From NCBI GenBank assembly GCA_963664405.1, contig OY761158.1, positions 4,064,001-4,128,000 on the forward strand: a stretch of 64,000 bases of DNA, in the 5' to 3' direction. Of this stretch, positions 28,308 through 63,032 are shown piece by piece (position 1 is the first letter of the stretch; every line of letters starts with the position of its first letter). The DNA comes from Thermoanaerobaculia bacterium (GTDB lineage: Bacteria; Acidobacteriota; Thermoanaerobaculia; Multivoradales; Multivoraceae). The translations under genes were made by a program, and so were the position numbers. The notes beneath the pieces are model-generated. The model saw nothing but the letters and a program-made list of their open reading frames with translations, had not been told where the DNA came from and did not search any database.

Positions 28308-28474
28308 CTAGTGTCCTGTATCAGTAGTTCCTCACACAACTCGCTGGCCCTTTTGCGCGCTGCCGTCGTTTCTCCTCCTCGCAATATTGCTCAATATACC
28401 TTCGTCGTAGCGCCTTGGCAGCACCCAAAATGACTGCGCGATTTATGCAACGAACCACTGATACAGGACACTAG
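28308..28474. mobile_element. 167-bp MITE/ERIC-like fold-back element (arm type B)
   Basis: Terminal inverted repeats CTAGTGTCCTGTATCAGTAGTTC / GAACCACTGATACAGGACACTAG (22 of 23); non-coding; core shared with the elements at 33433, 50248 and 62867. Confidence 0.85.
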
Positions 28475-28588
28475 CGTGGTTGGACTATAATTGCGGACCA
28501 ATCTGAGGCGGTGGGTGACGTCTCTCGCCAAAGGGTGTCGCTGCGTTCTCGAGTCGGTGCCCGCCGCTGCAGACCCTCAAGGCATGTC

Positions 28589-29542
28589 ATGAAAGTCATC
28601 GAGCGCTTGGCCGCAGCGAGCCGTCCACTGATCTCGTACGAGATCATTCCACCGGTGCGTGGCGGGACGCTGGGTAAGCTGCTGTCGCTGATCGAAGATC
28701 TGGTGAAGTACGAGCCGCCTTTCATCGATATCACGAGCCATGCTGCGGAGGTCAGCTACGACCAGTCGCAGGGCGCGATCCAGCGCCGGGTGAAGCGGAA
28801 GCGGCCGGGAACTCTCGGCGTCTGTGCCCTGATCCAGAACAAATATCACATCGATGCGGTCCCTCATATTCTGTGCAACGGTTTTACGCGCGAAGAGACG
28901 GAAGATGCGCTCATCGAGCTCAAGTACCTTGGCATAGAGAACGTCCTCGCGGTACGAGGCGACGATCACGGTTATCAGAAGCCGTTGCTGAACGGGCGGA
29001 CGGCCAACCGTTACGCGATCGACCTGGTTAACCAGATCGTCGATATGAACGCGGGACGCTATGTCGAGAGCAACCTCGTTGATGCCGAGCCCTCTGATTT
29101 CTGCGTTGGCATATCGGGGTATCCGGAGAAGCACTTCGAGTCGCCGAACCTCGAGAGTGACGTTGCTTGGACGAAGAAGAAGGTAGATGCCGGTGCTCAC
29201 TACATCGTCAGCCAGATGTTTTTCGAAAACCGTCACTTTTTCGAATATCTCGACGCATGTCGTGGCCTGGGGGTCGATGTGCCGATTATTCCCGGGCTCA
29301 AGATTGTGACCTCCCAGGCGCACGTCAGCTCGCTGCCCAAGACCTTTCATGTCGATCTTCCCCCTGCTCTCAGCGACGCGGTCAGCGCGGCAGAAGACAA
29401 CCGGGAGGTGCGTGAGATCGGAGTCGAGTGGGCCTTCCGGCAGGCGGAGGGTCTACTGAACCACGGCGTACCTTCGATCCACTTCTACATCCTTCAAAGC
29501 TCCGCGGCAATAAAACAGCTGATGGAGCGGTTGTCGATCTAG
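28589..29542 (+). CDS. metF: 5,10-methylenetetrahydrofolate reductase
   Basis: SYEIIPP, KRPGTLG, ENVLAVRGD, GYPEKH, KKKVDAGA..SQMFF; upstream of metH. Confidence 0.93.
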   Translation: MKVIERLAAASRPLISYEIIPPVRGGTLGKLLSLIEDLVKYEPPFIDITSHAAEVSYDQSQGAIQRRVKRKRPGTLGVCALIQNKYHIDAVPHILCNGFTREETEDALIELKYLGIENVLAVRGDDHGYQKPLLNGRTANRYAIDLVNQIVDMNAGRYVESNLVDAEPSDFCVGISGYPEKHFESPNLESDVAWTKKKVDAGAHYIVSQMFFENRHFFEYLDACRGLGVDVPIIPGLKIVTSQAHVSSLPKTFHVDLPPALSDAVSAAEDNREVREIGVEWAFRQAEGLLNHGVPSIHFYILQSSAAIKQLMERLSI

Positions 29543-29792
29543 CCTACGGGAATGATTGGTATCATTCCCTCCGGCTAGAGAACATGGCGCCGAGGACGGC
29601 GCATTTTCGGGAGTTCGGGAGAAGATTAGGGATCACGTCCTCCGGGTAGAGAACATCGCGCCCCTACGGGAATGATGTGTATCACTCGCTTTGGGTAGAG
29701 AACATGGCGCCGAGGACGGCACTTTCTTGGGAGTTCGGGAGAGATTAGAGATCACGTCCTCCGGGTAGAGAATGTGGCACCGAGGACGGCGT
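29543..29792. repeat. Two degenerate ~120-bp REP-like units
   Basis: CCTACGGGAATGAT.. at 29543 and 29663; GGCGCCGAGGACGGC-type palindrome three times; GGGAGTTCGGGAGA..GATCACGTCCTCCGGGTAGAGAA twice. Confidence 0.85.
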
Positions 29793-29877
29793 GTGAGAAT
29801 CCCTTAGTCACCCCTGCATCTGTCGCCTCACTTCCTCGACAACCTCGACCGGCGACGGCGAGGTAGGTAGAATAGCC

Positions 29878-32800
29878 TTGAAAGAGAGCTCCAAGTTCAG
29901 CTGCGAGATCACCAGCACCCCTCCTCACCCGGACACTGAAGAGCGTAGCGCCGCGCTGGAGTCGGCGTTCGACGAGCGCATTCTGGTGATGGACGGTGCC
30001 ACGGGTACCGCGCTCCAGGATGTCTCGCTCGGCGCCGAGGACTTTGGAGGAGCAGACCTGGAGGGCTGCAATGAGAATCTCAATGCGACTCGTCCAGACG
30101 TAGTTCTGGACGTCCATGCGCGCTATTTGAGCGCAGGCGCCGATATCGTCGAGACCAACACCTTCGGCGGCACGCCGCTCGTGCTCGATGAGTATGGGCT
30201 GGCCGACGATGCATTCGAGCTCAACCGCGTTGCATCACAGCTCGCTCGGCAGGCCTGTGTGGAGTGGGACGAGCCGGGTCGACTCCGCTTTGTGTGTGGC
30301 TCGATGGGGCCGACGACCAAGGCCATCTCGGTCACCGGAGGGGTGACCTTCGAAGAGCTTCGGGAGAACTACCGGGTTCAAGCTCTTGGGTTGATGGCCG
30401 GAGGCGCCGACTATCTCTTGCTCGAGACCTGTCAGGACACTCGCAATGTGAAGGCGGGTCTGCTCGCGATCGGCGATGCTTTCGGGGCCAGCGGGTGGAG
30501 ACTTCCGGTGGCGGTATCGGTGACGATCGAGACGATGGGCACGATGCTCGCGGGTCAGGACGCCGAGGCCCTCGCCGTTTCCCTGCTGCACGAGGATCTG
30601 CTCTATCTCGGGCTCAACTGTGCCACCGGACCCGAGCTCATGGGCGACCATCTCCGCACTTTCGCGAATCTTGCTCGAACGAGGGTCGGCTGCGTTCCGA
30701 ACGCGGGACTTCCCGACGAAGATGGCCTCTATCACGAAGGGCCAGCGGAGTTTCGTAAGGTATTCAGCCGCTTTCTCGAGGCGGGCTGGCTCAATCTGGT
30801 CGGCGGCTGCTGCGGCACGACCTCCGACCATGTGCAGATGCTAGTGGAGCTGGTGCAGGACTTTGCGCCGAGGCGTTTCGTGGAGCATCAGCGAGCCCTG
30901 ATCTCGGGTCTCGAAGCCGTCGAGCTCACCGAGGAGAACCGTCCGCTCCTGATTGGCGAGCGCACCAATGTTCTGGGTAGCCGCAAGTTTCGGGAGCTGA
31001 TTGCGGCGGGCGCCTTCGAATCTGCCGCAGAAGTCGGTCGCGCTCAGGTGCGGGGCGGAGCGCAGGTCATCGATGTCTGCCTTCAGGATCCTGATCGAGA
31101 CGAGATCGTCGACGTCGACGCTTTCTTCGAAAAGGTCACTCGACTCGTCCGAGTGCCGCTGATGATCGATTCGACGGATGACGCGGTGATGGAGCGAGCG
31201 CTGGAGTGGTGCCAGGGCAAGGCAGTCCTCAATTCGATAAACCTCGAGGATGGGCTCGAGCGCTTCGAGAAGGTCGTGCCGCTGGCACGTCGTTACGGCG
31301 CTGCGATGGTGGTCGGTCTCATCGATGAAGAAGGAATGGCCGTCACCACCGAGAGGAAGCTCGAGGTGGCTCGGCGGAGCCTGCAGATTCTGAGCGGCGA
31401 CATGGGTGTTCCACCGGAGGACATCTGGTGGGATGCGCTTGTTTTCCCCTGCGGCACCGGAGATAAGACCTACATCGGCTCGGCGGCCCGCACTATCGAG
31501 GCGGTGCGCCAGATCCGTAGCGAGATGCCGGAGACTCGGAGCATTCTGGGGGTCAGTAACGTCAGCTTCGGCCTGCCTACCGCAGGTCGTGAGGTACTGA
31601 ACTCGGTCTTTCTCTATCATTGCACCCAGGCGGGACTCGATGCTGCGATCGTCAACACGCAGAAGTTGGCGCGCTATGCCGAGATTCCCGCCGAAGAGCG
31701 TGCCTTGTCCGAGCGGCTCCTCTATCTCGAGCATGGCGACGTGGCAGGGAGCACCGAGGCGGTGGACGCGTTCGCCGCTCACTTTCGCGGACGCAAGAGC
31801 ACGGCCGTCGGCAAGCCGAGGGCGGAGCTGCCACTCGAAGAGCGACTGTCGCGCGCCATCGTCGAAGGCTCGAAGGAGGGTTTGCAAGAAGATCTGGATG
31901 GTGCTCTTGCCGACTCACGCTGGCCCGAGCCGCTTGACATCATCAACGGACCGCTGATGGTGGGGATGGCGGAGGTTGGGCGCCTTTTCAACGACAACGA
32001 GCTCATCGTCGCGGAAGTGCTGCAGAGCGCCGAGGTGATGAAGGCCGCGGTCTCGCACCTCGAGCCCCATATGGAATCGGCGGAGAGCGCCGTCCGCGGC
32101 AAAGTCCTGCTTGCCACCGTGAAGGGGGATGTGCACGACATCGGCAAGAACCTGGTTGACATCATCCTCTCGAACAACGGCTTCAAAGTGATCAACCTCG
32201 GCATCAGAGTGCCGAGCGAGCAGCTCATTCAAGCTATCCGCGAGCATCAGCCCGACGTGGTCGGCCTATCCGGGCTGTTGGTCAAGAGCGCCCAGCAGAT
32301 GGTCTCGACGGCGGCTGACCTCAAAGCGGTGGGTATCGAGACGGATCTGTTGGTCGGGGGCGCAGCGCTCACACGGCGCTTCACTCACAAGAAGATCGCT
32401 GCGAGCTACGGAGGACTCTGCACCTACGCCAAGGACGCGATGACCGGTCTGAGTTTCGTCGAGTCGCTCACCGACGGCAACCGTCGTGGAAAGCTCGAGG
32501 CGGAAGTCGCCGAGCTGGTGGCTCGCGATCGGGAAGTGCAGGATGTGGGAAGTGCTCGGGCGGCGACGACTTCGACAGCTCCTTCTGAGGTTCGGCGTGA
32601 CCTCGAGTCTCCGCCTCCCCCCGACCTCGATCGGCACACACTCGAGCTCGATCTCGACGAGGTTTGGGCACTTCTTAACCCCCAGATGCTTTACGGGAAG
32701 CACCTCGGTCTCAAAGGCTCGGTGCGGAAACTGGCGGAGGCAGGCGATGCGAAATACCTCAAGCTGGAGAGGGTGGTTCGAGAAGTAGAGGAGGAGGCGC

Positions 32801-33375
32801 GGCCGCTGCTCAGCGCGCGTGCGTTGTGGCGCTTCTATTCCGCACGTTCGGAGCAGAACCGGGTGTCATTGCTCGAGCCGGGTAGCGACAAGGTCGTTGC
32901 CAGCTGGGACTTCCCTCGCCAGGCCGGGGGGCAGCGGCTCTGCCTGGCGGACTTCGTGCTTCCCGAGGATCATGTAGCCCTCTTCGTTACCAGCGTCGGG
33001 TCCGAAGTGCGTCGGCTCTCGCTGGAGTGGAAAGAGCAGGGTCAATACCTGAAGAGCCATGTTTTGGCTGTGCTCTCTCTAGAGACCGCGGAGGCAGCCG
33101 CCGAGTGGCTACACCGCAATTTGAGAGCGTCGTGGGGCTTCGCCGATGCTCCAGATCTCGAGCAACAGGACGTCTTCGCGGGCCGCTACCATGGCAAGCG
33201 TTACAGCTTCGGCTATCCCGCTTGCCCGGATCTCGAGGGGCAGCGCCAGCTCTTCGCTCTGCTGGGTCCGGAAAAGATTGGGGTGATTCTCACCGAGGGC
33301 GACATGATGGATCCTGAGGCCTCAGTGTCGGCCATCGTCCTCCACCATCCCGAAGCCCGTTACTTCGGCGTGTAG
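29878..33375 (+). CDS. metH: Cobalamin-dependent methionine synthase
   Basis: DGATGT, GLNCATGP, GGCCGTT, GERTNVLGS pterin domain, KGDVHDIGKN B12 motif, RYSFGYPACPDL. Start uncertain. Confidence 0.97.
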   Translation: MKESSKFSCEITSTPPHPDTEERSAALESAFDERILVMDGATGTALQDVSLGAEDFGGADLEGCNENLNATRPDVVLDVHARYLSAGADIVETNTFGGTPLVLDEYGLADDAFELNRVASQLARQACVEWDEPGRLRFVCGSMGPTTKAISVTGGVTFEELRENYRVQALGLMAGGADYLLLETCQDTRNVKAGLLAIGDAFGASGWRLPVAVSVTIETMGTMLAGQDAEALAVSLLHEDLLYLGLNCATGPELMGDHLRTFANLARTRVGCVPNAGLPDEDGLYHEGPAEFRKVFSRFLEAGWLNLVGGCCGTTSDHVQMLVELVQDFAPRRFVEHQRALISGLEAVELTEENRPLLIGERTNVLGSRKFRELIAAGAFESAAEVGRAQVRGGAQVIDVCLQDPDRDEIVDVDAFFEKVTRLVRVPLMIDSTDDAVMERALEWCQGKAVLNSINLEDGLERFEKVVPLARRYGAAMVVGLIDEEGMAVTTERKLEVARRSLQILSGDMGVPPEDIWWDALVFPCGTGDKTYIGSAARTIEAVRQIRSEMPETRSILGVSNVSFGLPTAGREVLNSVFLYHCTQAGLDAAIVNTQKLARYAEIPAEERALSERLLYLEHGDVAGSTEAVDAFAAHFRGRKSTAVGKPRAELPLEERLSRAIVEGSKEGLQEDLDGALADSRWPEPLDIINGPLMVGMAEVGRLFNDNELIVAEVLQSAEVMKAAVSHLEPHMESAESAVRGKVLLATVKGDVHDIGKNLVDIILSNNGFKVINLGIRVPSEQLIQAIREHQPDVVGLSGLLVKSAQQMVSTAADLKAVGIETDLLVGGAALTRRFTHKKIAASYGGLCTYAKDAMTGLSFVESLTDGNRRGKLEAEVAELVARDREVQDVGSARAATTSTAPSEVRRDLESPPPPDLDRHTLELDLDEVWALLNPQMLYGKHLGLKGSVRKLAEAGDAKYLKLERVVREVEEEARPLLSARALWRFYSARSEQNRVSLLEPGSDKVVASWDFPRQAGGQRLCLADFVLPEDHVALFVTSVGSEVRRLSLEWKEQGQYLKSHVLAVLSLETAEAAAEWLHRNLRASWGFADAPDLEQQDVFAGRYHGKRYSFGYPACPDLEGQRQLFALLGPEKIGVILTEGDMMDPEASVSAIVLHHPEARYFGV

Positions 33376-33432
33376 TCTGGTGGTTCGCCGAGATCCGTGA
33401 GCTGGGGAGCGGATCGGACGCGAGAGCTTCAA

Positions 33433-33600
33433 CTAGTGGACCGTAACACCCAAACGATTAGCGCCTGAGCGGCCCTCGCGGCCGATCTCCGCGTTACGCT
33501 TCCTCGACATAGTCCCCGCTATGCCTGCGTCAGCGCGCCTTGATCTCGACCACGAATGACTCACTCAGCCACTAAACGTTCGAGTGTTACGGTCCACTAG
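33433..33600. mobile_element. 168-bp MITE/ERIC-like fold-back element (arm type A, copy 1)
   Basis: Perfect 17-bp inverted repeat CTAGTGGACCGTAACAC / GTGTTACGGTCCACTAG, extending imperfectly to about 29 bp; near-identical copy at 50248-50415. Confidence 0.92.
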
Positions 33601-35525
33601 CTGTCGACTTCGACTGCTGGCTCATGCCTGGCGAGCTCGTCTTCGAGACTCGCCCACTCCGAGAAAAGCCGATCTAGCTTCTCGGTCGACTGCTTCTGCT
33701 CGGTTTCGAGTCGGTGGACCTCGGTGCGCGGAGTGGACTCGAAGTAGCTGGGATCGCAGAAAGTCTCGTTGATCTCGTGGATGCGCTCTTCAGTCTCCTC
33801 GATCGCCGCGGTCAGCTCCTCTTGGCGACGCCCCAGGTCCTTAGCCGAGCTTGCCCGCGGCGTATTGCCTTTGCGCGCGAGTCGCTCGGCGCGCTTCTCA
33901 CGACGGCGCTGGGCCAGAGCTGTCTCGGCATCCAGATGATCGTCGCCGCAGCGCTCCAGGTACTCGTCGTAGCCTCCCTGGAAATCGTTCAGTCCCTCGG
34001 GTGTGATCTCGACGATTCGAGTCGCCAGCCGAGAGACGAACCATCGGTCATGAGAGACGAAGATGAGGGTGCCTGGGTAGGCTTCGAGACCCTTGGCTAG
34101 AGCGTCGATAGCTTCGAGGTCGAGGTGGTTCGTGGGCTCGTCGAGGAGCATCAGATTCGGCTTCGCGACGATCATTCCGCAGAAAATCAGCCGGGCTGCC
34201 TCTCCGCCGGAGAGGCTACCGATCCTTTTCTCGGCTTCGTCGCCGGAGAAGAGGACGGCTCCGAGGTGGCCGCGGACGAAGCCGATGGGCTCGCCCGGGC
34301 AGACATCCCACAACCATGCTTCGACCGTCTGACGCGGCGTCTCGAGCTGCTCTCGATGATCCTGGGCGAAGTATCCGGGGTGGGTCTCGTAGCCCCACTC
34401 GACACTACCTGAATCCGCCTCGACGTTGGCGGTCACAACCTTGAGCAGGGTCGATTTGCCGATCCCGTTGGGACCAATGATCGCGACGCGGTCGCCGCGT
34501 CTCACTTCGAGGTTGACGTCACTGAGGACCGGACGACCGTCATAGGCCTTGCCGAGGCCGCGGACGCGTAAGACCTCTTTGCCGCTCGGTCGCACCTGGT
34601 CGAAGCGAAAGGCTGGATAACGCCGCGAGCTCTTTGGCAGCTTCTTGATGTCGATCCGGTCGATGAGCTTGAGCTTGCTCTGAGCCTGGCGCGCCTTGGT
34701 CGCTTTTGCGCGAAATCGGTCGACGAAGGCCCTGTGGTCCGCGATCTGCTTCTCTTGTTTGGCGATCTCGGCTTCGCGGCGCTCCTGGTTCTCGACCTTC
34801 TGGCGCACGAAGGCGCTGTAGTTCCCGCGGTAGAGAAGAATGGTCTCGTAGTCGACATCAGCGATCGACGTGCAGACGTTGTCGAGAAAGCGGTGATCAT
34901 GGGAAACCACGACGGCGCAGCCGGAAAAGGAGCTCAAGAACTTCTCGAGCCATCGGATGGAAAGGATGTCGAGGTGATTCGTGGGCTCATCGAGGAGGAG
35001 AACGTCGGGCTCTGATGCCAGCACCTGCGCGAGGAGAACGCGCAGCTTGAAGCCTCCCGAGAGGGTGGAGAGAGGTTCGTGGTGGCGCTCGCTCTCGATC
35101 CCCAGACCTTCGAGAATCTCTCCCGATCGCGCTTCGAGTGCGTAGCCGTCGTGGTTGAGGATGATTTCCTCGAGCTCGGAATAGCGCTCGGCGTCGAAGC
35201 TGGTGTCTGCTCGCTCGAGGATCTTCTCCTTCTCGTCCATCGCCCGCCAGAGGGTCTGGTTGCCCATCATCACGACATGAATGATGGAGACTTCCTCGTA
35301 CTGAAAGTGATCTTGATTGAGCACTCCAAGGCGCGCTTTCTTCGGAATCGAAAGGGTCCCGTCGCTGGCACTCTCTTCGCCCGAGAGGATCTTCAGAAAG
35401 GTCGACTTGCCCGATCCGTTCGCCCCCACCAATCCGAAGCGTTCTCCTGGATTGAGTTGGAGAGAGACTCCTGAGAAGAGAGTCTGATGGCCGTATGACT
35501 TGCCCAGGCCGGACGTAGCGATCAT
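33597..35525 (-). CDS. ABC-F family ATP-binding protein
   Basis: Two ABC cassettes (GANGSGKST, LSGG, LDEPTNHLD; GPNGIGKST, LSGGE), no transmembrane segments, C-terminal coiled coil. ATG 35525 preferred. Confidence 0.95.
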   Translation of the reverse strand: MIATSGLGKSYGHQTLFSGVSLQLNPGERFGLVGANGSGKSTFLKILSGEESASDGTLSIPKKARLGVLNQDHFQYEEVSIIHVVMMGNQTLWRAMDEKEKILERADTSFDAERYSELEEIILNHDGYALEARSGEILEGLGIESERHHEPLSTLSGGFKLRVLLAQVLASEPDVLLLDEPTNHLDILSIRWLEKFLSSFSGCAVVVSHDHRFLDNVCTSIADVDYETILLYRGNYSAFVRQKVENQERREAEIAKQEKQIADHRAFVDRFRAKATKARQAQSKLKLIDRIDIKKLPKSSRRYPAFRFDQVRPSGKEVLRVRGLGKAYDGRPVLSDVNLEVRRGDRVAIIGPNGIGKSTLLKVVTANVEADSGSVEWGYETHPGYFAQDHREQLETPRQTVEAWLWDVCPGEPIGFVRGHLGAVLFSGDEAEKRIGSLSGGEAARLIFCGMIVAKPNLMLLDEPTNHLDLEAIDALAKGLEAYPGTLIFVSHDRWFVSRLATRIVEITPEGLNDFQGGYDEYLERCGDDHLDAETALAQRRREKRAERLARKGNTPRASSAKDLGRRQEELTAAIEETEERIHEINETFCDPSYFESTPRTEVHRLETEQKQSTEKLDRLFSEWASLEDELARHEPAVEVDS

Positions 35526-35576
35526 GGGCCCGAGGATATCAGCGAAGGCTGGTTGCGGCCGGCACAGCTTAGAATC

Positions 35577-37976: not shown

Positions 37977-38044
37977 CTGGTGCGAGCGCTGCGGGTGGGG
38001 CGCCTTGCCAGTGCTCCTTTGGCCCCGGTAGGATGCTCTGGTCG

Positions 38045-50247: not shown

Positions 50248-50415
50248 CTAGTGGACCGTAACACCCAAACGTTTAGCGCCTGAGCGGCCCTCGCGGCCGA
50301 TCTCTGCGTTACGCTTCCTCGACATAGTCCCCGCTATGCCTGCGTCAGCGCGCCTTGATCTCGACCCCGAATGACTCACTCAGCCACTAAACGTTCGAGT
50401 GTTACGGTCCACTAG
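50248..50415. mobile_element. 168-bp MITE/ERIC-like fold-back element (arm type A, copy 2)
   Basis: Same inverted repeats and length as 33433-33600; three substitutions seen between the copies. Confidence 0.92.
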
Positions 50416-50440
50416 GAGTCCGCGCGGCAGGACTCCGGAT

Positions 50441-50505
50441 GCGCCGTCCTCGGCGCCATGAGCAACTAGGCGGAGCAAATGATACTCATCATTTGTAGAG
50501 CCTAG
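50441..50505. repeat. Single short REP-like unit
   Basis: GCGCCGTCCTCGGCGCC..CAACTAGGCGGAGCAAATGATACTCATCATTTGTAGAGCCTAG; ends on the stop of the next gene. Confidence 0.88.
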
Positions 50506-51194
50506 CCCTTGCGAGCGCTGACTACCAGCTCCTGTCGCAGCTTGACGACAGTATCGGCATCGTAGATCCCCGAGCGCAGCTGAACGAGTGGGTAGATATC
50601 CGTTCGGCGCCCGACGATGACGCCGGGATGCAGAACGCAGTTACATCCCGTATTGACTCCGTCGCCGAGGATGGCTCCAAGCTTGCGCCGACCGGTGGCG
50701 AGCGGGCCGCCGGCGGTCTTGATCGTGACCTCGCCACCATCGTGCCGGAAGTTCGAGAGGACGGTGCCGGCACCAAGGTTGACAGAGGCGCCGAGGATGG
50801 AGTCGCCGACGTAATTGAGGTGGGGCGCTTTGGCACCCGGAAGCAGAATCGAGCGCTTGATCTCGGTATTCGCGCCGATCGTGCAGCCGTCGCCGATCCA
50901 CACACCGGCGCGGAGGTAGGCGCCAGTGCGTATGTCGACGTCTTCTCCGATGAACAGAGGCCCCTCGAGCATGGCTCCAGGGGCGACTCGCGTACCTCGT
51001 CCGATCACGATCCGATCACCGACGAGGTGGGCGTCGGGAGTGAGGCCTACTTCGATTCGCTCGGAAGGCAGGTCGGCGAGGAGAGAGTCGAGGGGTGCTT
51101 CGAGGAGCGCCCAGGGCGCCTCGGGGTCCCACGCCGCGGCGAAGGGTGGAGGGAGCTCGTGGAAGAGATCGGGCAGGGCGAGGCCTGGGCTCAA
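50502..51194 (-). CDS. Hexapeptide-repeat (left-handed beta-helix) protein, GlmU C-terminal acetyltransferase-like
   Basis: GAYLRAGVWIG, EIKRS, PHLNYVGDSILG..VNLGAGT..SN, RKLGAILGD. Confidence 0.85.
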   Translation of the reverse strand: MSPGLALPDLFHELPPPFAAAWDPEAPWALLEAPLDSLLADLPSERIEVGLTPDAHLVGDRIVIGRGTRVAPGAMLEGPLFIGEDVDIRTGAYLRAGVWIGDGCTIGANTEIKRSILLPGAKAPHLNYVGDSILGASVNLGAGTVLSNFRHDGGEVTIKTAGGPLATGRRKLGAILGDGVNTGCNCVLHPGVIVGRRTDIYPLVQLRSGIYDADTVVKLRQELVVSARKG

Positions 51195-55606: not shown

Positions 55607-55680
55607 GAGCGGCTGCGGGTAGGTAGGCTATTTGACGCTCGTTTCTATCTGTTAGACTTCGGTTCCGAGAAAGGCGGGTC

Positions 55681-56474: not shown

Positions 56475-57580
56475 GCCGACCTCAGCGCGCGATCTTCGTT
56501 CTCGGCTTGGCGCTCCTGGCGAGCGCCGCGGCGCCGCCTCGCCGGGAACAAGATCTGGTGTCTCTGCGCCGAGAGATTTCCGAGCTCGAGACGCGTCTGA
56601 GAGATGCTCGGATGCGGAGCCGTAGCCTGTCGGGTCGTCTTCGCGAGACCGAGCTCGATCTCCAGCTACAAGAGAGCCGCGTGCGAGAAGCGAGTCTGGG
56701 CTTCGAGCTCTCTCTCAGTCGGATCGACGAAAGTGAGAGATCGGTCGAGGATCTCGAATCCCGCCTTCAGGGCTTGCGCGTTTCGCTGCGTAATCATGTC
56801 CTGGTGCTGAGCGGCCTCGGGCGTCAGCGCTACCTTCGCCTGCTTCTCGCCTTGCGTCCCGAAGGCGACGTCGTGGCCGGGGTTCGCCAGCTGCGCTACC
56901 TCGCGCGTCGTGACGCCATGGCGGTCGAGAGGTTCGAGGCCTTGGAGCGCCGAGTCTCCCGCCAACGCGCCGCCCTTGCGGTGGAGCAGGCGAGGCTGAA
57001 GTCCTGGCTCCAGCAGGAAGAGGAGCGTCGTGCGTCTTTGGAGGTGGTGCGAAGCCGGCACCAGAGCCTTGCCCGCGAGGCAAACTCGGTGCGTAGACGA
57101 CTGGAGAGCCGATCGGCCTCGTTGGTCGAGCGGGAGGCGCGTTTGGGGAGAATGATCGAGCTGGTGGCGCAGCAAGACACGGCGACTTTGGACTCGGCTC
57201 CGATACAGGATTTCAAAGGAGTGTTGGATTGGCCGCTCGAAGGCCGGGTGGTCACCGATTTCGGCCCTCGTCTTGACCCGCGGTATCGCACCCAGGTCCC
57301 CCACAACGGGATCGCGATAGCCGCCGCCAAGCAGCTGGTCGTGGTCCCGGTGTACCCGGGCGAAGTTCTCTTTGCCGCTCCCTTTCAGGGCTATGGATTG
57401 ACCGTCGTGATCCAGCACGCCGGGGATGTCCTGACCCTCTATGCGGGCGTCGACAGCTTGGAAGTGGCGAAGGGCGATGTGGTATCTTTGGGTGATGTTC
57501 TGGGAGCCGCAGCCGGAGAAATCTACTTCGAGCTACGCGAGAGGAATCGCGCGGTTGATCCCCTTGACTGGCTCAGATGA
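56471..57580 (+). CDS. envC: EnvC-like murein hydrolase activator (coiled coil + M23 domain)
   Basis: Long coiled coil, LDWPLEG..FG, HNGIAIAA, YGLTVVIQH. Start is either CTG 56471 (gives a full signal peptide) or TTG 56507. Confidence 0.8.
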   Translation: MSRPQRAIFVLGLALLASAAAPPRREQDLVSLRREISELETRLRDARMRSRSLSGRLRETELDLQLQESRVREASLGFELSLSRIDESERSVEDLESRLQGLRVSLRNHVLVLSGLGRQRYLRLLLALRPEGDVVAGVRQLRYLARRDAMAVERFEALERRVSRQRAALAVEQARLKSWLQQEEERRASLEVVRSRHQSLAREANSVRRRLESRSASLVEREARLGRMIELVAQQDTATLDSAPIQDFKGVLDWPLEGRVVTDFGPRLDPRYRTQVPHNGIAIAAAKQLVVVPVYPGEVLFAAPFQGYGLTVVIQHAGDVLTLYAGVDSLEVAKGDVVSLGDVLGAAAGEIYFELRERNRAVDPLDWLR

Positions 57581-57592
57581 CGAGGGTCGAGC

Positions 57593-58765
57593 ATGAGTCA
57601 TAGTCGGCTGGTCTTCGTGGCGGTCTCGGGCGTCTTGGTGCTGTCGATTCTTTCGGGCACCCTCTTTGGTGCGTCGGCGCTCGACGGCGAGGCTGAGGAA
57701 GGATCGATCTACAAGTATCTCTCTGTTTTCACGGAGGTGTTGCGGTTGGTTCGTCAGGCCTATGTCGACGAGACCGATGTGCGCACGCTCATGCACGGAG
57801 CCTTCGAGGGAGCTCCGGACGCGCTCGATCCGTTTTCGATGTACGTCCCCGAGGAAGGAATCGAGTCCTTCGTTGCGGCCCGAGAGGTGGGCTCGCGCCG
57901 GAGCGGTATTCGTATTGTGAAGGAGCGAGGGGTGGCTTATGTCGTTGCGGTCCAGGACGAGGGACCGGCGGCGGAGATCGGTATTCAGCGTGGCGACATC
58001 GTTGCGGAGATGGATGGCCTTTCGACTCGCGGACTCCCGCTGTGGCGGATTGAAGAGCAATTGGCGGCGGAGGTCGGCACCGAGATCGAGCTGGAGATTC
58101 TTCGCGCGGGGGAAACTCGAGACCTGGTCCTCGAGCTCTCCGATTTCAGCCCACCGCTGGCTTCGCTGGAGCAGGTCGAAGGTACGCCGCTGCTGCGCAT
58201 CGCCAGCTTCGCGCCCGAGGCTGTTGCCAAGATACGGGGCCTGCTCGAGGGTGTAGTTGGGTCCAAGATGCTCATCGACGTTCGTGGTGTCGCGTGGGGA
58301 GATACGGAGTCGGCTTACGATGTTGCGAAGCTCTTCGCCTCAGGCGAGCTCGGGTCCCTGGTCAATCGGCACGGTCGCCTTCAGACCTTCAAGGCCGACG
58401 GCGCGGCAACCTGGCTCGGAAGCCTTGTGCTTCTGGTGGATCGTGGTGCTCAGGGCCCGGCCGAAGTTTTCGCTAAAGTGCTCCAGCAGAGCTCCGGTGC
58501 CAAGTTGGTCGGCCAGCCTACTTTCGGTCATGCAGGCCGCTCGCGGGTGGTGGAGCTGAACGCCGGCGGCTCTCTGGTGATCACTGAAGCGTTCTATACC
58601 GGTCCCGATGGAGAGCCGCTCAACGAAGCGGTGGAGCCCGATCTAATGGTCGGAAACCGCTCGCGAAGCTTCAAGGAGCTAGACGAGTCGCTCGAGGACC
58701 TCACCCTCCAGCGCGGTCTCGAGCTGCTCCTCTCCGATCAGTCCGAAGTGAAGAAAGCGGCCTGA
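57593..58765 (+). CDS. S41/CtpA-family PDZ protease homologue, catalytic residues apparently substituted
   Basis: AYVD, LDPFSMY, PDZ (GPAAEIGIQRGD), LVDRGAQGPAEVFA, LVGQPTFGHAG. Confidence 0.85.
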   Translation: MSHSRLVFVAVSGVLVLSILSGTLFGASALDGEAEEGSIYKYLSVFTEVLRLVRQAYVDETDVRTLMHGAFEGAPDALDPFSMYVPEEGIESFVAAREVGSRRSGIRIVKERGVAYVVAVQDEGPAAEIGIQRGDIVAEMDGLSTRGLPLWRIEEQLAAEVGTEIELEILRAGETRDLVLELSDFSPPLASLEQVEGTPLLRIASFAPEAVAKIRGLLEGVVGSKMLIDVRGVAWGDTESAYDVAKLFASGELGSLVNRHGRLQTFKADGAATWLGSLVLLVDRGAQGPAEVFAKVLQQSSGAKLVGQPTFGHAGRSRVVELNAGGSLVITEAFYTGPDGEPLNEAVEPDLMVGNRSRSFKELDESLEDLTLQRGLELLLSDQSEVKKAA

Positions 58766-58832
58766 GCGCCGTCTTCCTTTTCGCGGTGGCCAGTGCGGCC
58801 GGCGGGGGCACTCCGCCCCCCCCCCCCGAGTC

Positions 58833-61367
58833 TCAGTTGTGGCGCAGGCTTTCGATGGGGCGTCGTTGTAGGGCTCCCCAGCTGGCTCCGACACCGGCGA
58901 TCGTGCTGAGGGCGACACTCCAGGCGACCGCTCGAGCGTAGGCGGCAGGGGCGAAGGTCCATTGCAGCTCCATGCCGCGGGTCAGCGCGATCCAGGCTAC
59001 GACTCCGCCACCGGCGGCTCCGATGAGCCCGGCGACAAGGCCGAGAAGGGCGTACTCGGTGGCGAAGAGAGCCATGACTCCTCGTCGTTGCATGCCCAGG
59101 GTCTTGAGCAGAGCCACTTCGCGACCGCGTCGGCTCGACTCGACAGCGACAGTCGCGGCGAGGATGACTAAGCCGCAGATCAGCGTGAAGCCGCCGAGGA
59201 AGGAGATCCCCCAACCGAGCCGCTCGAGGAGTGCGACGATCTTTTCTAAAATCTCTCGCACATTGACCACGGTGATGTTGGGAAAGGCGCTGACGATCAG
59301 GTCCTGGGTCTGCTGCTCACTGCCCCGGGGGAGCTGAGCTGTGGCGAGCCTGAGCTGGGGCGCCTCTTCGAGGGCGCCAGGCTCGGCGATGAGGAAGAAG
59401 TTGATCGCGAAGCTCTCCCACTCGACCGAGCGCAGGCTGGTGACCGTAAAGCTCATCGGCAAGCCTTGGATGTCGAGCTCCAACTCGCTGCCGAGCTCAA
59501 CGCCTAGATCTTGCGCGAACTCTTCTTCGACACTGATCTCGAGGCGCTCTGGATCTCCCCACAGGCTGCCTGAGATGAGGGTATTGCCCTCTGGAAGCGT
59601 GTCCAAGTAGGTGAGACGCTGCTCTCGGGTCATCGCCCACTTCCTGCCGCCGCGGCCGCTCTCTTCGACCAGCTCTGTCGTGCTCCGACCGTCGATGGCG
59701 CGGAGACGGGCCATGACCATCGGCACCGATTGGACCTGATCGGCGCCCTGGCTTTCGAGTAGCTCTTGTAGAGGAGCCCATTGGCCCGGTTGCACGTCGA
59801 TGAAGAAGACGGAGGGCGCATTCTCGGGCAGCTCGGATTGAATTTGCTCCCGAAGTTGTGACTGCACCTGAGAGGTGGCGAAGACGACGAGGAGCCCGAG
59901 TCCCAACGCGACGATGGCGCCTAGGGTTGCCGCTCCTGGCCGCGCGAGCGACGCCAGGCCGTGTCGGAGCCACACCCGACCTAGCTCACGGGGAAGCCGA
60001 CGGACCCCGGCAGTGAGCGCGCTGGCGGCGATAGCCAGGGCGACCGCAGTGGCGAGTAGGCCGCCGGTGAATTGCGCACCGAGGACGGCAGAACCGGCCT
60101 GCGCACTCGCCAAGAGGCCAACGCCGAGAATCAGTGTCACACCGGTGGCTAGGGCCATAGAGCGAGTCCCCGAAAGCGGCTCGGCGTCCTGGCGGAGGAC
60201 ACGAGCTGGAGGGACTCGCAGAACCCGAGTCAGAGGGGGGAGGCTGAAGAGCGCAGTAACGCCGAGGCCCAAGGCCATTCCACGTACCATCACGATGGGC
60301 TGCCAGGAGTGGAGTAACTCGCTTGGAACGAGGTCGCGCAGGAAGAGCGGTAGGATCGTGAGCAGGGCCATGCCTGCGAGGCAGCCGGCGGCGCTGCCGA
60401 CGCCGCCGAGGAGAAAGGCCTGTCCGAGGTAGAGACAGAATGCCTCACGGGGTCTGACGCCTAGGCACTTGAGCACCGCAATGGCGTCCATCCGGCTCGC
60501 TACCCAGGTGCGGACCGCCTGGCCGACGCCTACGCCGCCGATCAGAAGTGACAAGAGCGCGATCAGACCCAGATAGTGCTCGAGCCGGGCCAGCCCGCGC
60601 CTGAGAGCCGGCTGGGCCTCCTCGTAGGTCTCGACGCGGAAGCCTTGGTCGCGCGGCGCAACGGACTCCAGCGCTGCCGCCAGGGAGTGGAGGCGCGAGA
60701 GGGGAGTGGCTGCGGGCAGTTGGATCAGAAGACGGTGTTCCACCCGACTCCCCGTGCTCTCCAGAGGCGTGAGGGCCAGCCCTTCCTCCGAGAGGAAGAT
60801 CCGGGGACCGAGTGTGAAGGCTCCGCCAATACGATCGGGCTCGTTCAGAACCGTGCCCTTGACCTCGAAAGAGTGGCCGCCGATGAGCAGCCTGTCTCCG
60901 ACGTCGATGTCGAGTCTAGCGAGCAGGTCTGGAGCCACCACGACTCCGTCCGGCACTAGCAGGCTCGCCAGGGAGCGACTTGGCTCGATCTCTAGATCTC
61001 CATAGAAGGGGTAGGCCTCATCCACTACTTTGAGCTCGACGAGCTGGCTTCTCGCGATACCCGTGGAGCGAGCGGCCGCAACGATCGTGACCATCTCGCG
61101 CACCCGCGAATGAGCGCTGCCGGGAGCCTGGTCGATCAAGAGGTCCAAGGCCTCTCGGGGGATTGGCTGTCCACCCCTGATCGAAAGATCTGCGGCTAGG
61201 AGGTCCTTGGCTTCTCCCCGGATGCCGCTGTCCAGACCGCGGGAGAGACCTGCGACCACGACCACCGCCGCGACTCCGATAGCCAGGCAGACTACGAAGA
61301 AGAGGAGCTGGTGGAGGGCACCGCGCAGCTCCCGCACGGTATAGCGGAGGAGGAAGCCGGAAGTCAC
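58833..61367 (-). CDS. YbbP-like ABC permease (double FtsX)
   Basis: CLAIGVAAV, LLAADL, YPFYG, IAVLKCLG, LPENAPSVFFIDVQ, REVALLKTLG. Confidence 0.92.
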   Translation of the reverse strand: MTSGFLLRYTVRELRGALHQLLFFVVCLAIGVAAVVVVAGLSRGLDSGIRGEAKDLLAADLSIRGGQPIPREALDLLIDQAPGSAHSRVREMVTIVAAARSTGIARSQLVELKVVDEAYPFYGDLEIEPSRSLASLLVPDGVVVAPDLLARLDIDVGDRLLIGGHSFEVKGTVLNEPDRIGGAFTLGPRIFLSEEGLALTPLESTGSRVEHRLLIQLPAATPLSRLHSLAAALESVAPRDQGFRVETYEEAQPALRRGLARLEHYLGLIALLSLLIGGVGVGQAVRTWVASRMDAIAVLKCLGVRPREAFCLYLGQAFLLGGVGSAAGCLAGMALLTILPLFLRDLVPSELLHSWQPIVMVRGMALGLGVTALFSLPPLTRVLRVPPARVLRQDAEPLSGTRSMALATGVTLILGVGLLASAQAGSAVLGAQFTGGLLATAVALAIAASALTAGVRRLPRELGRVWLRHGLASLARPGAATLGAIVALGLGLLVVFATSQVQSQLREQIQSELPENAPSVFFIDVQPGQWAPLQELLESQGADQVQSVPMVMARLRAIDGRSTTELVEESGRGGRKWAMTREQRLTYLDTLPEGNTLISGSLWGDPERLEISVEEEFAQDLGVELGSELELDIQGLPMSFTVTSLRSVEWESFAINFFLIAEPGALEEAPQLRLATAQLPRGSEQQTQDLIVSAFPNITVVNVREILEKIVALLERLGWGISFLGGFTLICGLVILAATVAVESSRRGREVALLKTLGMQRRGVMALFATEYALLGLVAGLIGAAGGGVVAWIALTRGMELQWTFAPAAYARAVAWSVALSTIAGVGASWGALQRRPIESLRHN

Positions 61368-61386
61368 TTGGGCACTCGCTCGGTTC

Positions 61387-62073
61387 CTAGCCGACCCGAT
61401 CCTTCGGCACGACCCGACCGTCAGACAGGTGGATGAGTCGCCGGGCGAGCGCGGCCGCCGCGGGGTCGTGGGTGACCATGACCAGGGTGGTTGCGTCGAG
61501 CCGGTGGAGACTCGACAGCATGTTGAGAACCGCCCTGCCGGTCTTGGAGTCGAGATTTCCTGTGGGCTCGTCGGCGAGGAGGAGAGCGGGCTTGGCGGCG
61601 AAGGCCCTTGCTACGGCGACCCGTTGCTGCTCGCCGCCGGACAACTGGCTGGGGTAGTGGTGACCGCGCTCGGCGAGCCCAACCCGATCCAGAAGCTCGT
61701 CTGCACTCTCCAAAGCACCAGCCTCGCCCTTGAGCTCGAGGGGTAGAAGAATGTTCTCTTTGGCGGTGAGGTGCTGAAGGAGCTGGAAGGCTTGAAAGAC
61801 AAATCCGACCTCTTGCCGACGCCATAGCGCCAGCTCGTCTTCGCTCTTGTCCTGGATCTCGTAGCCATTGAAGATCACTTTGCCGCGAGTGGGGCGGTCG
61901 AGGCCGGCCATCAGCGCGAGCAGAGTCGACTTGCCACTGCCCGAGGGGCCAAGAATGGCCACGAATTCGCCGCTCTCGATCGCTAAATCGATTTCATCCA
62001 ACACTACTAGGGGGCGACCGCCTGAGCTCAGGATTTTGGTCAGCTTGCGGACTTCGAGGCAGGGCACCGGCAT
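61387..62073 (-). CDS. YbbA-like ABC ATP-binding protein
   Basis: GPSGSGKST, HYPSQLSGGEQQRVA, ADEPTGNLD. Confidence 0.93.
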   Translation of the reverse strand: MPVPCLEVRKLTKILSSGGRPLVVLDEIDLAIESGEFVAILGPSGSGKSTLLALMAGLDRPTRGKVIFNGYEIQDKSEDELALWRRQEVGFVFQAFQLLQHLTAKENILLPLELKGEAGALESADELLDRVGLAERGHHYPSQLSGGEQQRVAVARAFAAKPALLLADEPTGNLDSKTGRAVLNMLSSLHRLDATTLVMVTHDPAAAALARRLIHLSDGRVVPKDRVG

Positions 62074-62165
62074 TGGTTGGTACGGCTTGGGCCGCTAGAG
62101 AGGGCTTAGGTGAGCGGAGCCAAAGCTTAGCATTGCCCGCTTCGCGCTCCGCTACACTGCCTGGC

Positions 62166-62843
62166 GTGTGCGTGTGCCTCCGTTTCCGTGCCGCAATGCT
62201 TCTTCTCGCGCTGGCGAGTGTCCGGGTTGTCTTTGCATCTCCCCAGGTCGTCGAGCTTGCGGAGGAGCCTTCGCCGGTTCGGTTGGTCTTCCTTGGCGAC
62301 AGTTTGACGGCGGGTTACGGCGTAGGGGAGCTCGAGGCCTTTCCGCACCTCCTCGAGCGGGCCTTGAGTGAGCGAGGGCATGAAGTGCAGGTCGTCAATG
62401 CCGGCGTCAGTGGTGACACCACCGCCGGCGGCCTGAGTCGACTCGCCTGGTCGCTTCGCCAGGAGCCCGACATTTTGGTGGTCGAACTGGGTGGAAATGA
62501 TGGTCTCCGTGGTCTTCCACTCGAAATGACGGAGAACAACCTACGCCAGATCGTCTCAGCGGCCGAGGAGGCGGGGAGTCGGATTCTCTTGCTTGGCATG
62601 TTGATGCCCCCGAACTACGGCCCTGACTACACGCAGGGCTTTGCCGCAATCTTCCCGCGCCTATCGGAAGAGCTCGGTGTCGCTCTCGTACCCTTCCTTC
62701 TCGAGGGTGTGGGGGGGCAGCCCGAGTTGAACCAGCCCGACGGAATCCATCCCACCGCCGCCGGCCATCTTATTCTCGCGAACAATGTGTACCCCTACCT
62801 CGAACGCATGATCCTCGACCTCGGGCCCCCTTCGCAACGCTGA
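62166..62843 (+). CDS. tesA: Arylesterase / acyl-CoA thioesterase I (SGNH/GDSL)
   Basis: GDSLTAGYG, NAGVSGDTT, ELGGNDGLRG, DGIHP; divergent from ybbA as in the known locus. Start uncertain. Confidence 0.9.
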   Translation: MCVCLRFRAAMLLLALASVRVVFASPQVVELAEEPSPVRLVFLGDSLTAGYGVGELEAFPHLLERALSERGHEVQVVNAGVSGDTTAGGLSRLAWSLRQEPDILVVELGGNDGLRGLPLEMTENNLRQIVSAAEEAGSRILLLGMLMPPNYGPDYTQGFAAIFPRLSEELGVALVPFLLEGVGGQPELNQPDGIHPTAAGHLILANNVYPYLERMILDLGPPSQR

Positions 62844-62866
62844 CCCGACCTAGAACACGAAGCCTA

Positions 62867-63032
62867 AAAGACCAGCGTTTCCAAGGTTCGTGCTGCATAG
62901 CCCGAGCTCATTCTGTTCGCTGGCCAGGCGCGCCGACGCAGGCATATTGGGCAATATGTCGAGGAGGCGAAACGCCGGCAGCGGGCAGAAGGGGCCGAGA
63001 TATGTGCGCGAACTTTGGAAACGCTGGTCTAG
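62867..63032. mobile_element. ~166-bp MITE/ERIC-like fold-back element (arm type C, opposite orientation)
   Basis: Inverted repeat AGACCAGCGTTTCCAAGGTTCGTGC / GCGCGAACTTTGGAAACGCTGGTCT(AG). Its core closely matches the reverse complement of the type A core. Left CTAG is degenerate (CTAAAAG). Confidence 0.85.

Follow-up and report, generated by a model that had tools for sequence, protein, structure and literature searches.

The usual view of miniature transposons (MITEs) is that they arise passively by deletion and that nothing constrains the sequence of their interior. The hairpin-forming families Correia/NEMIS, RUP, ERIC and Chunjie are described as small, non-coding, multicopy and intergenic, with terminal inverted repeats and short target repeats, as often adjoining stop codons and as able to form a long hairpin (PMC10969869, PMC3733652); a review gives Chunjie a length of 178-235 bp, and it is compared with the present family by description only. 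Other described systems resemble the present one in their target site. IS630/Tc1-mariner elements and MITEs insert at TA with TA duplication, as reported for an IS630-family element in PMC2170065, and a title cited in that paper has an IS630-associated composite transposon preferring TA within 5'-CTAG-3'. In the IS5 family, 11 of the 12 IS427-group entries counted in Table 2 of PMC3281130 have 2-bp repeats, the 100-nt IS5-type MITEPsy1 has a CTAG or YTAA duplication, and ISPsy19 has 3-nt repeats and a terminal repeat beginning with GAG (PMC3189936). REP/REPIN repeats with RAYT, and TIRtrons with TIRYT, are palindromic intergenic repeats with a conserved tetranucleotide at the foot, believed to move as ssDNA hairpins and described as forming repeat families in Acidobacteria and Planctomycetes (PMC3733652).

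Here we describe fold-back elements in a window of 64 kb, the whole stretch of Thermoanaerobaculia DNA that was analysed. They share the general traits of the hairpin families listed above but differ from hairpin MITEs in retaining, across about a dozen phylum-level labels and alongside different terminal repeats, a central hairpin (about 55-60 nt) whose G·A loop is fixed, and in having covarying arms and a strand-specific fold. As part of the best explanation that we can offer, which we put forward tentatively, the four window sequences would be copies belonging to three subfamilies of a single non-autonomous fold-back element of MITE type.

Fold-back elements of the window

The features of the window are listed below.

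28308-28474, minus strand: element B, a 167-bp fold-back rod with ends CTAGTG...CACTAG
28368-28414, minus strand: core hairpin of B, match to the core pattern
33433-33600, minus strand: element A1, 168 bp, covariance-model score 150.9 bits
33493-33539, minus strand: core hairpin of A1, match to the core pattern
50248-50415, minus strand: element A2, 168 bp, covariance-model score 152.6 bits
50308-50354, minus strand: core hairpin of A2, match to the core pattern
62864-63032 (rod 62869-63030), plus strand: element C, covariance-model score 136.7 bits
62927-62973, plus strand: core hairpin of C, match to the core pattern
22590-22618, no strand assigned: intergenic mini-palindrome of 29 bp with CTAGTG...CACTAG ends, without the core
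63029-63052, no strand assigned: mini-palindrome of 24 bp with the terminal motif, adjoining C and using the same CTAG

An earlier note on this DNA had reported four intergenic elements of about 167 bp, and its coordinates were borne out, as were the core strings of A, B and C, which read exactly as written there. All four elements are intergenic, with Pfam-supported adjacent genes, and three of the four copies lie in convergent gene settings. Element B, whose core variant carries GACGAAGG, is flanked by divergent sugar-transferase (-) and metF-like MTHFR (+) genes and scores 140.8 bits with the covariance model on the minus strand versus 40.5 bits on the plus strand; its core hairpin consists of a basal helix, a tandem G·A internal loop and a covarying apical stem-loop. 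Element A1 sits between convergent metH (+) and ABC-F (-) genes, and its terminal CTAG (33597-33600) contains the ABC-F stop codon. Element A2, 97% identical to A1, lies between SpoIIE-type phosphatase (+) and hexapeptide transferase (-) genes. Element C is flanked by convergent GDSL lipase (+) and MazG (-) genes, the MazG stop codon being contained in its right CTAG (63029-63032). The terminal motif CTAGTGnnCnGT is common to A and B. Each element forms a rod, as had been claimed, but the claim that the rods end in CTAG holds only in part, since the left end of C is degenerate and reads CTA, then three extra A, then G; an element at locus L051 elsewhere, 88.6% identical to C, has its left CTAG intact.

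The rods fold better than shuffled sequences. Folding as DNA gave energies of -50.2, -44.2 and -57.2 kcal/mol (z -8.5, -7.8 and -7.8), with none of 200 shuffles folding as well, and element A folded as RNA gave -109.8 kcal/mol (z -13.3). A 20-nt core motif matched four times in the window versus 0.23 matches expected, a number reached by none of 100 shuffles. The covariance model, run with filters off and with the four window copies in its training set, returned exactly these four as strong window matches at 137-153 bits, the next best match scoring 24 bits.

Architecture, covariation and strand specificity

The element comprises five parts, from the outermost to the central: termini, outer arms, mid-arm loop, middle helix and central hairpin. 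About 12 terminal bases are conserved and arranged as an inverted repeat. They are followed by outer arms that diverge in sequence yet remain complementary, by a small conserved purine-purine loop in mid-arm and by a compensated middle helix. The conserved central hairpin contains a tandem G·A internal loop, in which GACGMA faces GAGGA, as well as a bulge of 3 nt and an apical stem that covaries, in keeping with the earlier observation of a variable but paired apical stem beside a retained loop. The rod measures 160-177 bp, mostly about 165-170 bp, and its length is constant across phyla. Conservation amounts to 0.83-0.89 bits per column in the terminal 12 columns, compared with 0.28 for the outer arms, 0.16 for the flanking DNA and 1.41 bits per column for the core, the last value being partly forced by the scan pattern; the core is conserved in sequence beyond pairing alone.

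The earlier picture changes in two respects. The elements had been described as the reverse of a MITE, whereas the termini are conserved like the core and only the outer arms drift. They had also been said to carry three unrelated sets of arms, but pairwise alignments of the A/B, A/C and B/C arms beat shuffles (z 2.5-6.6, with the observed score reached by 0-6 of 500 shuffles), and the arms are diverged homologues.

A check of covariation, which the earlier note had suggested together with a covariance-model search, gave compensatory changes in 43 of the 48 pairs. Paired cells reached 91.7% versus 61.2% in shuffles, a value attained by none of 500, and sliding the pairing partners dropped them to 35-43%; the covariation score was 0.757 versus 0.200.

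Selection has kept the fold on a single strand. There are 289 G·T pairs and 62 A·C pairs, with G·T in excess in 72 of 79 sequences, and the consensus energy is -77.1 on the element strand versus -40.7 on the reverse strand. The element strand folds more stably in all 79 elements (79/79), with a mean gain of 18.3 kcal/mol, and the window copies score only 28-40 bits with the covariance model on the opposite strand. A strand-specific fold implies that some single-stranded form matters. The orientation of the elements showed no preference for the sense of the neighbouring gene (8 sense versus 15 antisense in tandem settings) or with respect to local GC skew, a weak proxy (36 versus 39), so no support is gained for read-through transcription or for lagging-strand exposure.

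Distribution of the core and comparison with known families

A scan of GTDB species genomes with the exact core pattern gave at least 102 loci. By record label, Acidobacteriota (including Thermoanaerobaculia) account for 47 of 102 among the matches listed. The other loci among the matches listed cover about a dozen other phylum-level labels, including Myxococcota or 'delta' groups, Desulfuromonadales, Thermodesulfobacteriota, Gemmatimonadota, Planctomycetota, Omnitrophota, Actinomycetota, Binatia, Elusimicrobia, Peribacteria and Gammaproteobacteria. Applied to 100 of these loci, the covariance model found a full-length rod (at least 94 bits), mostly CTAG-ended, in 74; 11 of the remainder were cut by the end of the locus DNA and 15 had the central part only or a low score. 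The model also found copies that lack the exact pattern, at 1297-1468 of L051 (119 bits) and at 1139-1239 and 1215-1386 of L034. The view of the elements as a dispersed, mobile-looking, non-coding family defined by structure, with a conserved core and compensated arms, is supported.

The core is not tied to one kind of element. At some loci it lies within double elements of about 290 bp that have other terminal repeats and one core per strand: those of Omnitrophota, Elusimicrobia and Planctomycetia carry CTGAG... repeats flanked by TA, their second core being inverted, and those at L073 and L034 have CTAG ends. The occurrence of the same core with quite different terminal repeats argues that it is not the end-recognition site. 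In the Peribacteria copy, which has 37% G+C overall, the arms are A+T-rich and the core is kept.

The family is large and apparently uncatalogued, and places miniature mobile elements, always with this compact structured core, in many bacterial phyla. At Rfam 15 gathering thresholds the window contains matches to 6S RNA and two tRNAs only, and nothing relevant came up when element C, the 79-nt core of A1 and ten loci were scanned by E-value. Searches of plasmids and phages for the element, and of papers for sequence strings, gave no match. A link to ERIC/IRU had been raised as a possibility and gained no support from a blastn search (word size 11, E≤1) with element A as query, which gave no match in 5,426 complete E. 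coli genomes; E. coli genomes carry ERIC copies. The ends do not support membership of REP/REPIN, which are described as units of 20-40 bp with GTAG or CGTC tags on a palindrome (PMC3733652), unlike the present rods of about 167 bp with CTAG or variant ends and a long conserved core.

A family of 'predicted short RNA elements' annotated in Geobacter in 2009 (Gmet_R1005, PMC2700814) is a possible earlier sighting of the present one. It too is intergenic and multicopy, and the legend of Additional file 4 places it also in other Geobacter species and Desulfotalea. The stem arms of the central palindrome given in that legend recur, with a 3-nt loop, in the apical stem of L074, one of 102 loci among the matches listed, and the palindrome could be accommodated where the core loop is split into its two halves. 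The description of the family in PMC2700814 includes no fold-back, CTAG ends or cross-phylum spread.

Ends, mobility and possible modes of movement

The elements show several traits of MITEs: they are shorter than about 300 bp, occur in four copies in 64 kb and at least 102 loci elsewhere, lie in unrelated contexts and have conserved terminal inverted repeats. As a scan of 176 ORFs showed, they are flanked by housekeeping genes that are unrelated. At L040 an element lies between orthologous CorC and ProRS genes, and the corresponding window site is without it; this element-free site is too diverged to read as an empty site. The family disrupts metagenome assemblies, many contigs stopping within a copy.

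Element ends are located in CT(N)AG. CTAG had been proposed as a preferred end or target, and 33 of 79 elements have it at both ends, a further 24 of 79 at a single end. Single-base deviations from CTAG fall at the outer positions in five cases and in TA in 12, and at the inner G or C in none of the 17. Subfamilies with terminal repeats starting GGG... or GAGC... are flanked by TTA, TAA or TCA direct repeats, and abutting elements have one common CTAG at window positions 50412-50415 (A2 and an adjoining repeat from another family) and 63029-63032, and at L034 and L086. The sequences lean only slightly towards a duplication of TA or TNA rather than a CT(N)AG repeat of 4-5 bp.

The reading that we prefer, with somewhat less than even confidence, is that of a MITE superfamily with a CT(N)AG target, moved by a transposase in trans and provided with a portable core that acts single-stranded. 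On insertion, a staggered cut at CT(N)AG would duplicate TA or TNA and thereby rebuild CTAG at each end, so that neighbouring TAG stop codons would survive. A DDE transposase supplied in trans would recognise the terminal repeats; by target and by a 2-3 bp duplication, the best-fitting candidates would be the IS5 family (IS427-/IS1031-like groups) and the IS630 family. Rather than serving in end recognition, the core would be a portable cis module, acting single-stranded as a transcript or as ssDNA arising during mobilisation, and would be required for proliferation of the family, probably through a binding partner that is itself conserved among phyla.

Neither the window nor the DNA of the loci, about 2 kb each, yielded an autonomous partner. 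The absence of a mobiliser from the window was confirmed, with a transposase domain in none of its 44 proteins. Two of the 176 flanking ORFs carry transposase domains, at L002 (IS91/ISCR-like) and L024 (IS1182/IS5-like, below curated cut-offs), and neither of these genes shares the terminal repeats of the elements. The terminal repeat of L043 matches the end adjoining the L024 gene at 14 of 17 positions, counted by eye, the single lead of this kind. The terminal repeats of the elements bear a loose resemblance to those of known insertion sequences. For the IS5 family, the putative duplication lengths fit and the present ends begin with G (GAG in one subfamily), but the terminal-repeat resemblance is loose, no autonomous copy was seen in the window or locus DNA, and the passage on MITEPsy1 in PMC3189936 mentions no conserved core. 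TA within CTAG accords with IS630, the 3-nt T-N-A repeats of some present subfamilies do not, and neither an IS630-type gene nor a matching terminal repeat was found in the window or flanking ORFs.

The preservation of the hairpin on just one strand is not accounted for by double-stranded cut-and-paste alone. Movement as an ssDNA hairpin, cut on one strand at CT(N)AG at the rod foot by a structure-reading enzyme such as an HUH tyrosine transposase of the IS200/IS605, RAYT or TIRYT kind, predicts just such a strand asymmetry. The core and fold would then be the recognition signal, consistent with a core kept across phyla while the arms keep pairing alone, and double elements would provide a core on either strand; the left CTAG would be the target and the right one the element's own, so that no true duplication would arise. 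Tyrosine transposases of Acidobacteria are described as flanked by long, partly self-complementary terminal repeats, some of them in repeat families (PMC3733652). We nevertheless consider this mode of movement unlikely, given the conserved inverted repeats of the terminal 12 bases, the TTA/TAA/TCA repeats that match within a copy like duplications, the association of one core with unrelated ends and two layouts, the unbiased orientation to GC skew and the CTAG ends in place of GTAG or CGTC tags. In addition, a Y1 transposase domain was found in none of the 176 flanking ORFs (E≤1e-6) and in none of the 44 window proteins. An HUH tyrosine transposase gene, usually present in one copy only, could be located in another part of the genome.

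RNA offers two further routes. The rod might be kept mainly for a host role as RNA, its transposon-like ends being a means of spread only: it could serve as a 3'-end stabiliser, as an insulator between convergent genes or as a protein-binding small RNA whose purine-rich loop with a GGAGG stretch binds a conserved factor. The convergent settings (15 of 45 classifiable settings across loci, beside those of the window), the strand-specific fold with its many G·U-type pairs, the core conserved beyond its pairing and the annotation of the possibly identical Geobacter family (PMC2700814) all fit this proposal. It seems improbable to us, as read-through would yield the wrong strand in most tandem settings, no U-tract follows window copies A1, A2 and B, no Rfam family matches, and terminal repeats, CTAG ends, contig-breaking copy numbers and insertion polymorphism are left unexplained. 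A SINE-like spread, in which the rod transcript would recruit a reverse transcriptase through its core and insert at a nuclease-made CT(N)AG cut, would likewise accord with selection of the fold on one strand, with a length constant at about 165-170 bp and with a core that behaves as a conserved recognition module. However, DNA transposons typically show conserved inverted repeats at their termini and short target repeats, reverse transcriptase was found in neither the window nor the 176 flanking ORFs, and bacteria are not known to have such a system of RNA-copy spread; we regard it as very improbable.

Returning to the MITE reading, its small internal hairpin is shared by about a dozen phylum-level labels, retains its sequence in a copy of 37% G+C overall with A+T-rich arms, occurs with varied terminal repeats and belongs to a fold preserved on a single strand. 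These four unusual properties point to an unrecognised requirement of the life cycle, either a single-stranded stage or a bound partner, and this requirement would concern a very common class of bacterial repeats. A stronger form, in which proliferation of a cross-phylum superfamily depends on the single-stranded rod (RNA or DNA) and its G·A-rich core is read by a dedicated enzyme or a universally conserved partner, is in our view doubtful. If true, it would mean structure-guided mobilisation or hitch-hiking, distinct from ordinary terminal-repeat recognition, with the core as a previously undescribed structured nucleic-acid motif of wide occurrence. With its abundant covariation, the structured motif is ready for experiment. 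As the element appears to rebuild TAG stop codons at insertion sites, its annotation would also make gene prediction more accurate in Acidobacteriota and further phyla with few cultured members. Within the window, the mini-palindrome at 22590-22618 scores 16.7 bits (E 0.05) with the covariance model and may be an internally deleted copy of the element.

Four fold-back elements in a housekeeping region

By reading and folding the sequence, we located all four elements at the positions proposed in the earlier note, and the core strings quoted there were recovered as written. The elements are as follows.

28308-28474, strand opposite to C: element B
33433-33600, strand opposite to C: element A1
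50248-50415, strand opposite to C: element A2
~62869-63032, other strand than A1, A2 and B: element C

Each element folds into a near-perfect rod. The DNA folds reach -50.2, -44.2 and -57.2 kcal/mol (z -8.5, -7.8 and -7.8), values equalled by 0 of 200 shuffles, and element A folded as RNA reaches -109.8 kcal/mol (z -13.3). The 20-nt motif of the core, the small conserved central hairpin, occurs four times in the window against 0.23 expected. A covariance model trained on 79 elements and run on the window with filters off scored the four copies, which were part of its training set, at 137-153 bits and everything else at 24 bits or less. The arms of types A, B and C had been described as unrelated, a view that we could not sustain, as the A/B, A/C and B/C arm alignments all exceed shuffles (z 2.5-6.6). 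The terminal motif CTAGTGnnCnGT is common to A and B.

The window is a housekeeping region encoding aminoacyl-tRNA synthetases, L20, RNase Y, metH, 6S RNA and two tRNAs. Element B has divergent neighbours and A1, A2 and C have convergent ones; the terminal CTAG of A1 contains the stop codon of an ABC-F gene and that of C the stop codon of MazG. A transposase domain was found in 0 of the 44 proteins scanned, in agreement with the earlier statement that the window encodes no mobiliser. CTAG is scarce in this DNA (91 sites versus 159 expected from dinucleotide shuffles), and repeat ends account for a visible share of the sites. The RNA of the 6S gene (15755-15942, + strand; RF00013, 80.1 bits) is likewise a rod, and by the model it has no relationship to the elements. 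The two tRNA genes (9097-9171 and 9234-9307, + strand) lie 136 bp apart and are 89% identical over 61 nt.

Spread of the core and its layouts

An exact core pattern scanned over GTDB species genomes gave at least 102 loci (L001-L102, ~2 kb each). Taxon shares among the listed loci, tallied by hand from taxon labels, are not representative: 47 of 102 belong to Acidobacteriota, including Thermoanaerobaculia, and 22 to Myxococcota, 'delta', Desulfuromonadales or Thermodesulfobacteriota. The matches listed also include nine Gemmatimonadota, six Planctomycetota, four Omnitrophota, three Actinomycetota, two Binatia, one each from a Bdellovibrio-like bacterium, Peribacteria, Gammaproteobacteria and Elusimicrobia, and five without a label. 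As several core loci lie on Mb-scale contigs, while one belongs to a complete genome and another to an isolate, the spread is not explicable by mis-binning.

The model search took in 100 loci, leaving out L101 and L102. Among the matches listed, 74 of these 100 carry a full-length rod scoring 94 bits or more, 11 are truncated where the available DNA stops, and 15 show the central part alone or a low score. Copies without the exact pattern were picked up by the model as well (L051 1297-1468, L034 1139-1239 and 1215-1386, L086 11-90). L051 holds a second C-type copy, inverted and ~190 bp from the first. The Peribacteria copy (L061 939-1115) has 37% G+C overall, with A+T-rich arms around an unchanged G+C-rich core.

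The core also occurs in a second layout. At loci from Omnitrophota, Elusimicrobia and Planctomycetia it lies within a ~290-bp intergenic element whose terminal repeats start with CTGAG and are flanked by TA. Here the core hairpin is followed by a short CCC...GGG linker and then by a second hairpin, a diverged inverted core to which the model assigns 27-40 bits on the other strand, so that the double form has one core per strand. The double layout with CTAG ends was found on a Gammaproteobacteria contig (L073) and on an Acidobacteriota contig (L034 1105-1383), where the ~280-bp double element directly adjoins a single one. The same core thus stands under different ends and in different layouts, and is therefore a module common to these elements.

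Core anatomy and strand-specific fold

In a set of 40 elements with pairwise identities below 80%, the information per column was 0.16 bits in the flanks and 0.28 in the outer arms, 0.54-0.61 around a small mid-arm loop and the middle helix, 0.83-0.89 at the termini, and 1.41 in the core. Part of this last value is imposed by the scan pattern, which specifies some of the core positions; positions outside the pattern, the C and A preceding it and the G following it, are also invariant. In the core, a basal helix bearing a 3-nt bulge is joined to an internal loop, GACGMA opposite GAGGA, and to an apical stem of 6-8 bp whose sequence varies freely. The internal loop is able to form G·A pairs in tandem on either side of a C-G pair. 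The idea that this loop resembles the loop-E arm of 5S rRNA was dropped, as a scan with the 79-nt core brought up no 5S match at E<=10.

The fold is maintained by compensatory change. RNAalifold predicted 48 pairs, 43 of them with compensatory changes. Paired cells amounted to 91.7%; shuffling the columns left 61.2% (0 of 500 as high) and sliding the partners 35-43%. The covariation score was 0.757 against 0.200. Relatedness inflates these figures, but the slide control retains it. The fold is also specific to the element strand, the one carrying the purine-rich loop. Over the 79 elements, one invariant G·T pair excluded, this strand has 289 G·T versus 62 A·C pairs, with G·T exceeding A·C in 72 sequences, the reverse in one and equality in six. 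The reverse-complement alignment has 180 G·T versus 115 A·C pairs and a consensus energy of -40.7 kcal/mol, compared with -77.1 kcal/mol for the element strand, which is the better fold in 79/79 sequences by a mean of 18.3 kcal/mol. On the opposite strand the window copies score 28-40 bits with the model, against 137-153 on the element strand. Such a bias is not expected of an element that exists only as duplex, and we conclude that a single-stranded form of defined polarity, RNA or DNA, is under selection.

Ends, proposed insertion and mode of movement

Of the 79 elements, 33 have CTAG at both ends and 24 at a single end. The left end of element C is degenerate; in its 88.6% identical relative at L051 the corresponding CTAG is intact. 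The first base inside the TA is G and the last is C, so that insertion at the TA of CTAG would restore CTAG and a TAG stop on both sides. In subfamilies whose terminal repeats differ, TTA, TAA or TCA flanks the element at each end, as part of CTTAG, CTAAG or CTCAG. Single-base deviations at the ends number five in the outer C/G, 12 in the TA and none in the inner G/C, a count that gives duplication of TA or TNA only a modest edge over a repeat of 4-5 bp. A single CTAG is common to A2 and the adjoining repeat (50412-50415) and to C and a mini-palindrome (63029-63032), and joins abutting elements in L034 and in L086 (single plus double element); this sharing fits repeated insertion into CTAG. 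The flanking genes of L040 and L067, both labelled Acidobacteriota, are ~70% identical to window genes, so the window probably belongs to this phylum. At L040 convergent CorC-like and ProRS genes have an element (934-1110) precisely between their TAG stops, and the orthologous site in the window (6220-6525) has neither element nor CTAG; as an empty/filled pair, the site is too diverged for an exact empty-site reading. An excess of stop codons in terminal TAG was rejected as an unclean signal in high-G+C DNA (57 of 115 ends, but 28 and 49 in shifted-frame controls).

From the observed ends, dispersal, covariation, strand bias and modularity, we tentatively read the elements as a MITE superfamily, that is, miniature non-autonomous transposons, targeting CT(N)AG (CTAG or the 5-nt CTNAG). 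The transposase family, the length of the duplication and the role of the core we infer: a DDE transposase would move the elements in trans through their terminal repeats, and the portable core would work in single-stranded form and be required for the family to proliferate. The main rival, which we consider unlikely, is transposition as a single-stranded hairpin by an enzyme that reads structure; it gives the best account of the strand bias but the worst of the conserved inverted ends and varied layouts. That the elements are RNAs serving the host seems improbable, and movement through an RNA copy more improbable by far. No sense bias to genes was found among the listed loci, with eight sense and 15 antisense cases in tandem settings alongside 15 convergent and seven divergent ones, counts that use crude ORF calls in high-G+C DNA; at 18 listed loci a predicted ORF, probably spurious, covers the core, and 34 have no gene call on one side. 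Local GC skew gave no replication bias of the element strand (36 positive versus 39 negative loci).

Among the 176 ORFs flanking the listed loci, two encode transposase domains, one IS91/ISCR-like (L002) and one IS1182/IS5-like but below cut-offs (L024); one is a XerC/D-like recombinase and the others are unrelated housekeeping genes. The L024 transposase was rejected as mobiliser, having no terminal repeat in common with the neighbouring element. The DNA beside its gene (480-572) resembles by eye the terminal repeat of L043 (58-80 / 228-250) at 14 of 17 bases, an apparent similarity that is a lead only.

Several described elements have comparable targets. An IS630-family element is reported to duplicate TA (PMC2170065, which also cites a title on an IS630-associated composite transposon preferring the TA in 5'-CTAG-3'), 11 of 12 elements counted in the IS427 group have 2-bp repeats (Table 2 of PMC3281130), and an IS5-type MITE duplicates CTAG, with 3-nt repeats in an IS5-family element (PMC3189936). 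REP and 'TIRtron' repeats with tyrosine transposases, the HUH type, occur in Acidobacteria among others, and their tags are GTAG or CGTC, whereas the core-bearing elements end in CTAG (PMC3733652). For Geobacter metallireducens, PMC2700814 mentions 24 'predicted short RNA elements' located between genes; their central palindrome could occupy the place of the apical stem in the core, and L074 has identical stem arms. Going by the palindrome printed in the legend, it is possible that they belong to the core-bearing family; a literature search on their names returned PMC2700814 alone.

Rfam 15 gave no matching family at gathering thresholds or in three E-value scans. The suggested kinship with ERIC/IRU elements found no support, as blastn of element A against 5,426 complete E. 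coli genomes gave no match at E<=1. In a plasmid collection, element A had one irrelevant 34-nt match and the L097 element none; element A had no match in phages, and core and terminal strings as printed sequence in papers retrieved primers and unrelated matches only.

The window also holds a second repeat family of short CTAG-delimited modules (1294-1731, 18391-18576, 26689-26838, 29541-29791 and 50412-50506), including a GGAAATGAT...ATCATTTCC hairpin and a GCGCC-GTCCTC-GGCGCC hairpin in tandem and inverted copies; at 50412 it starts with a hairpin like the terminal repeat of the L034 double element. That it is a disguised copy of the element was rejected, with 24 bits from the model and units folding no better than shuffles in three of five folds. 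Two mini-palindromes, at 22590-22618 (29 bp) and 63029-63052 (24 bp), have CTAGTG-type ends and no core. Their pattern has three matches in the window against 0.14 expected and none in the 102 loci listed, and they may be internally deleted copies of the element.
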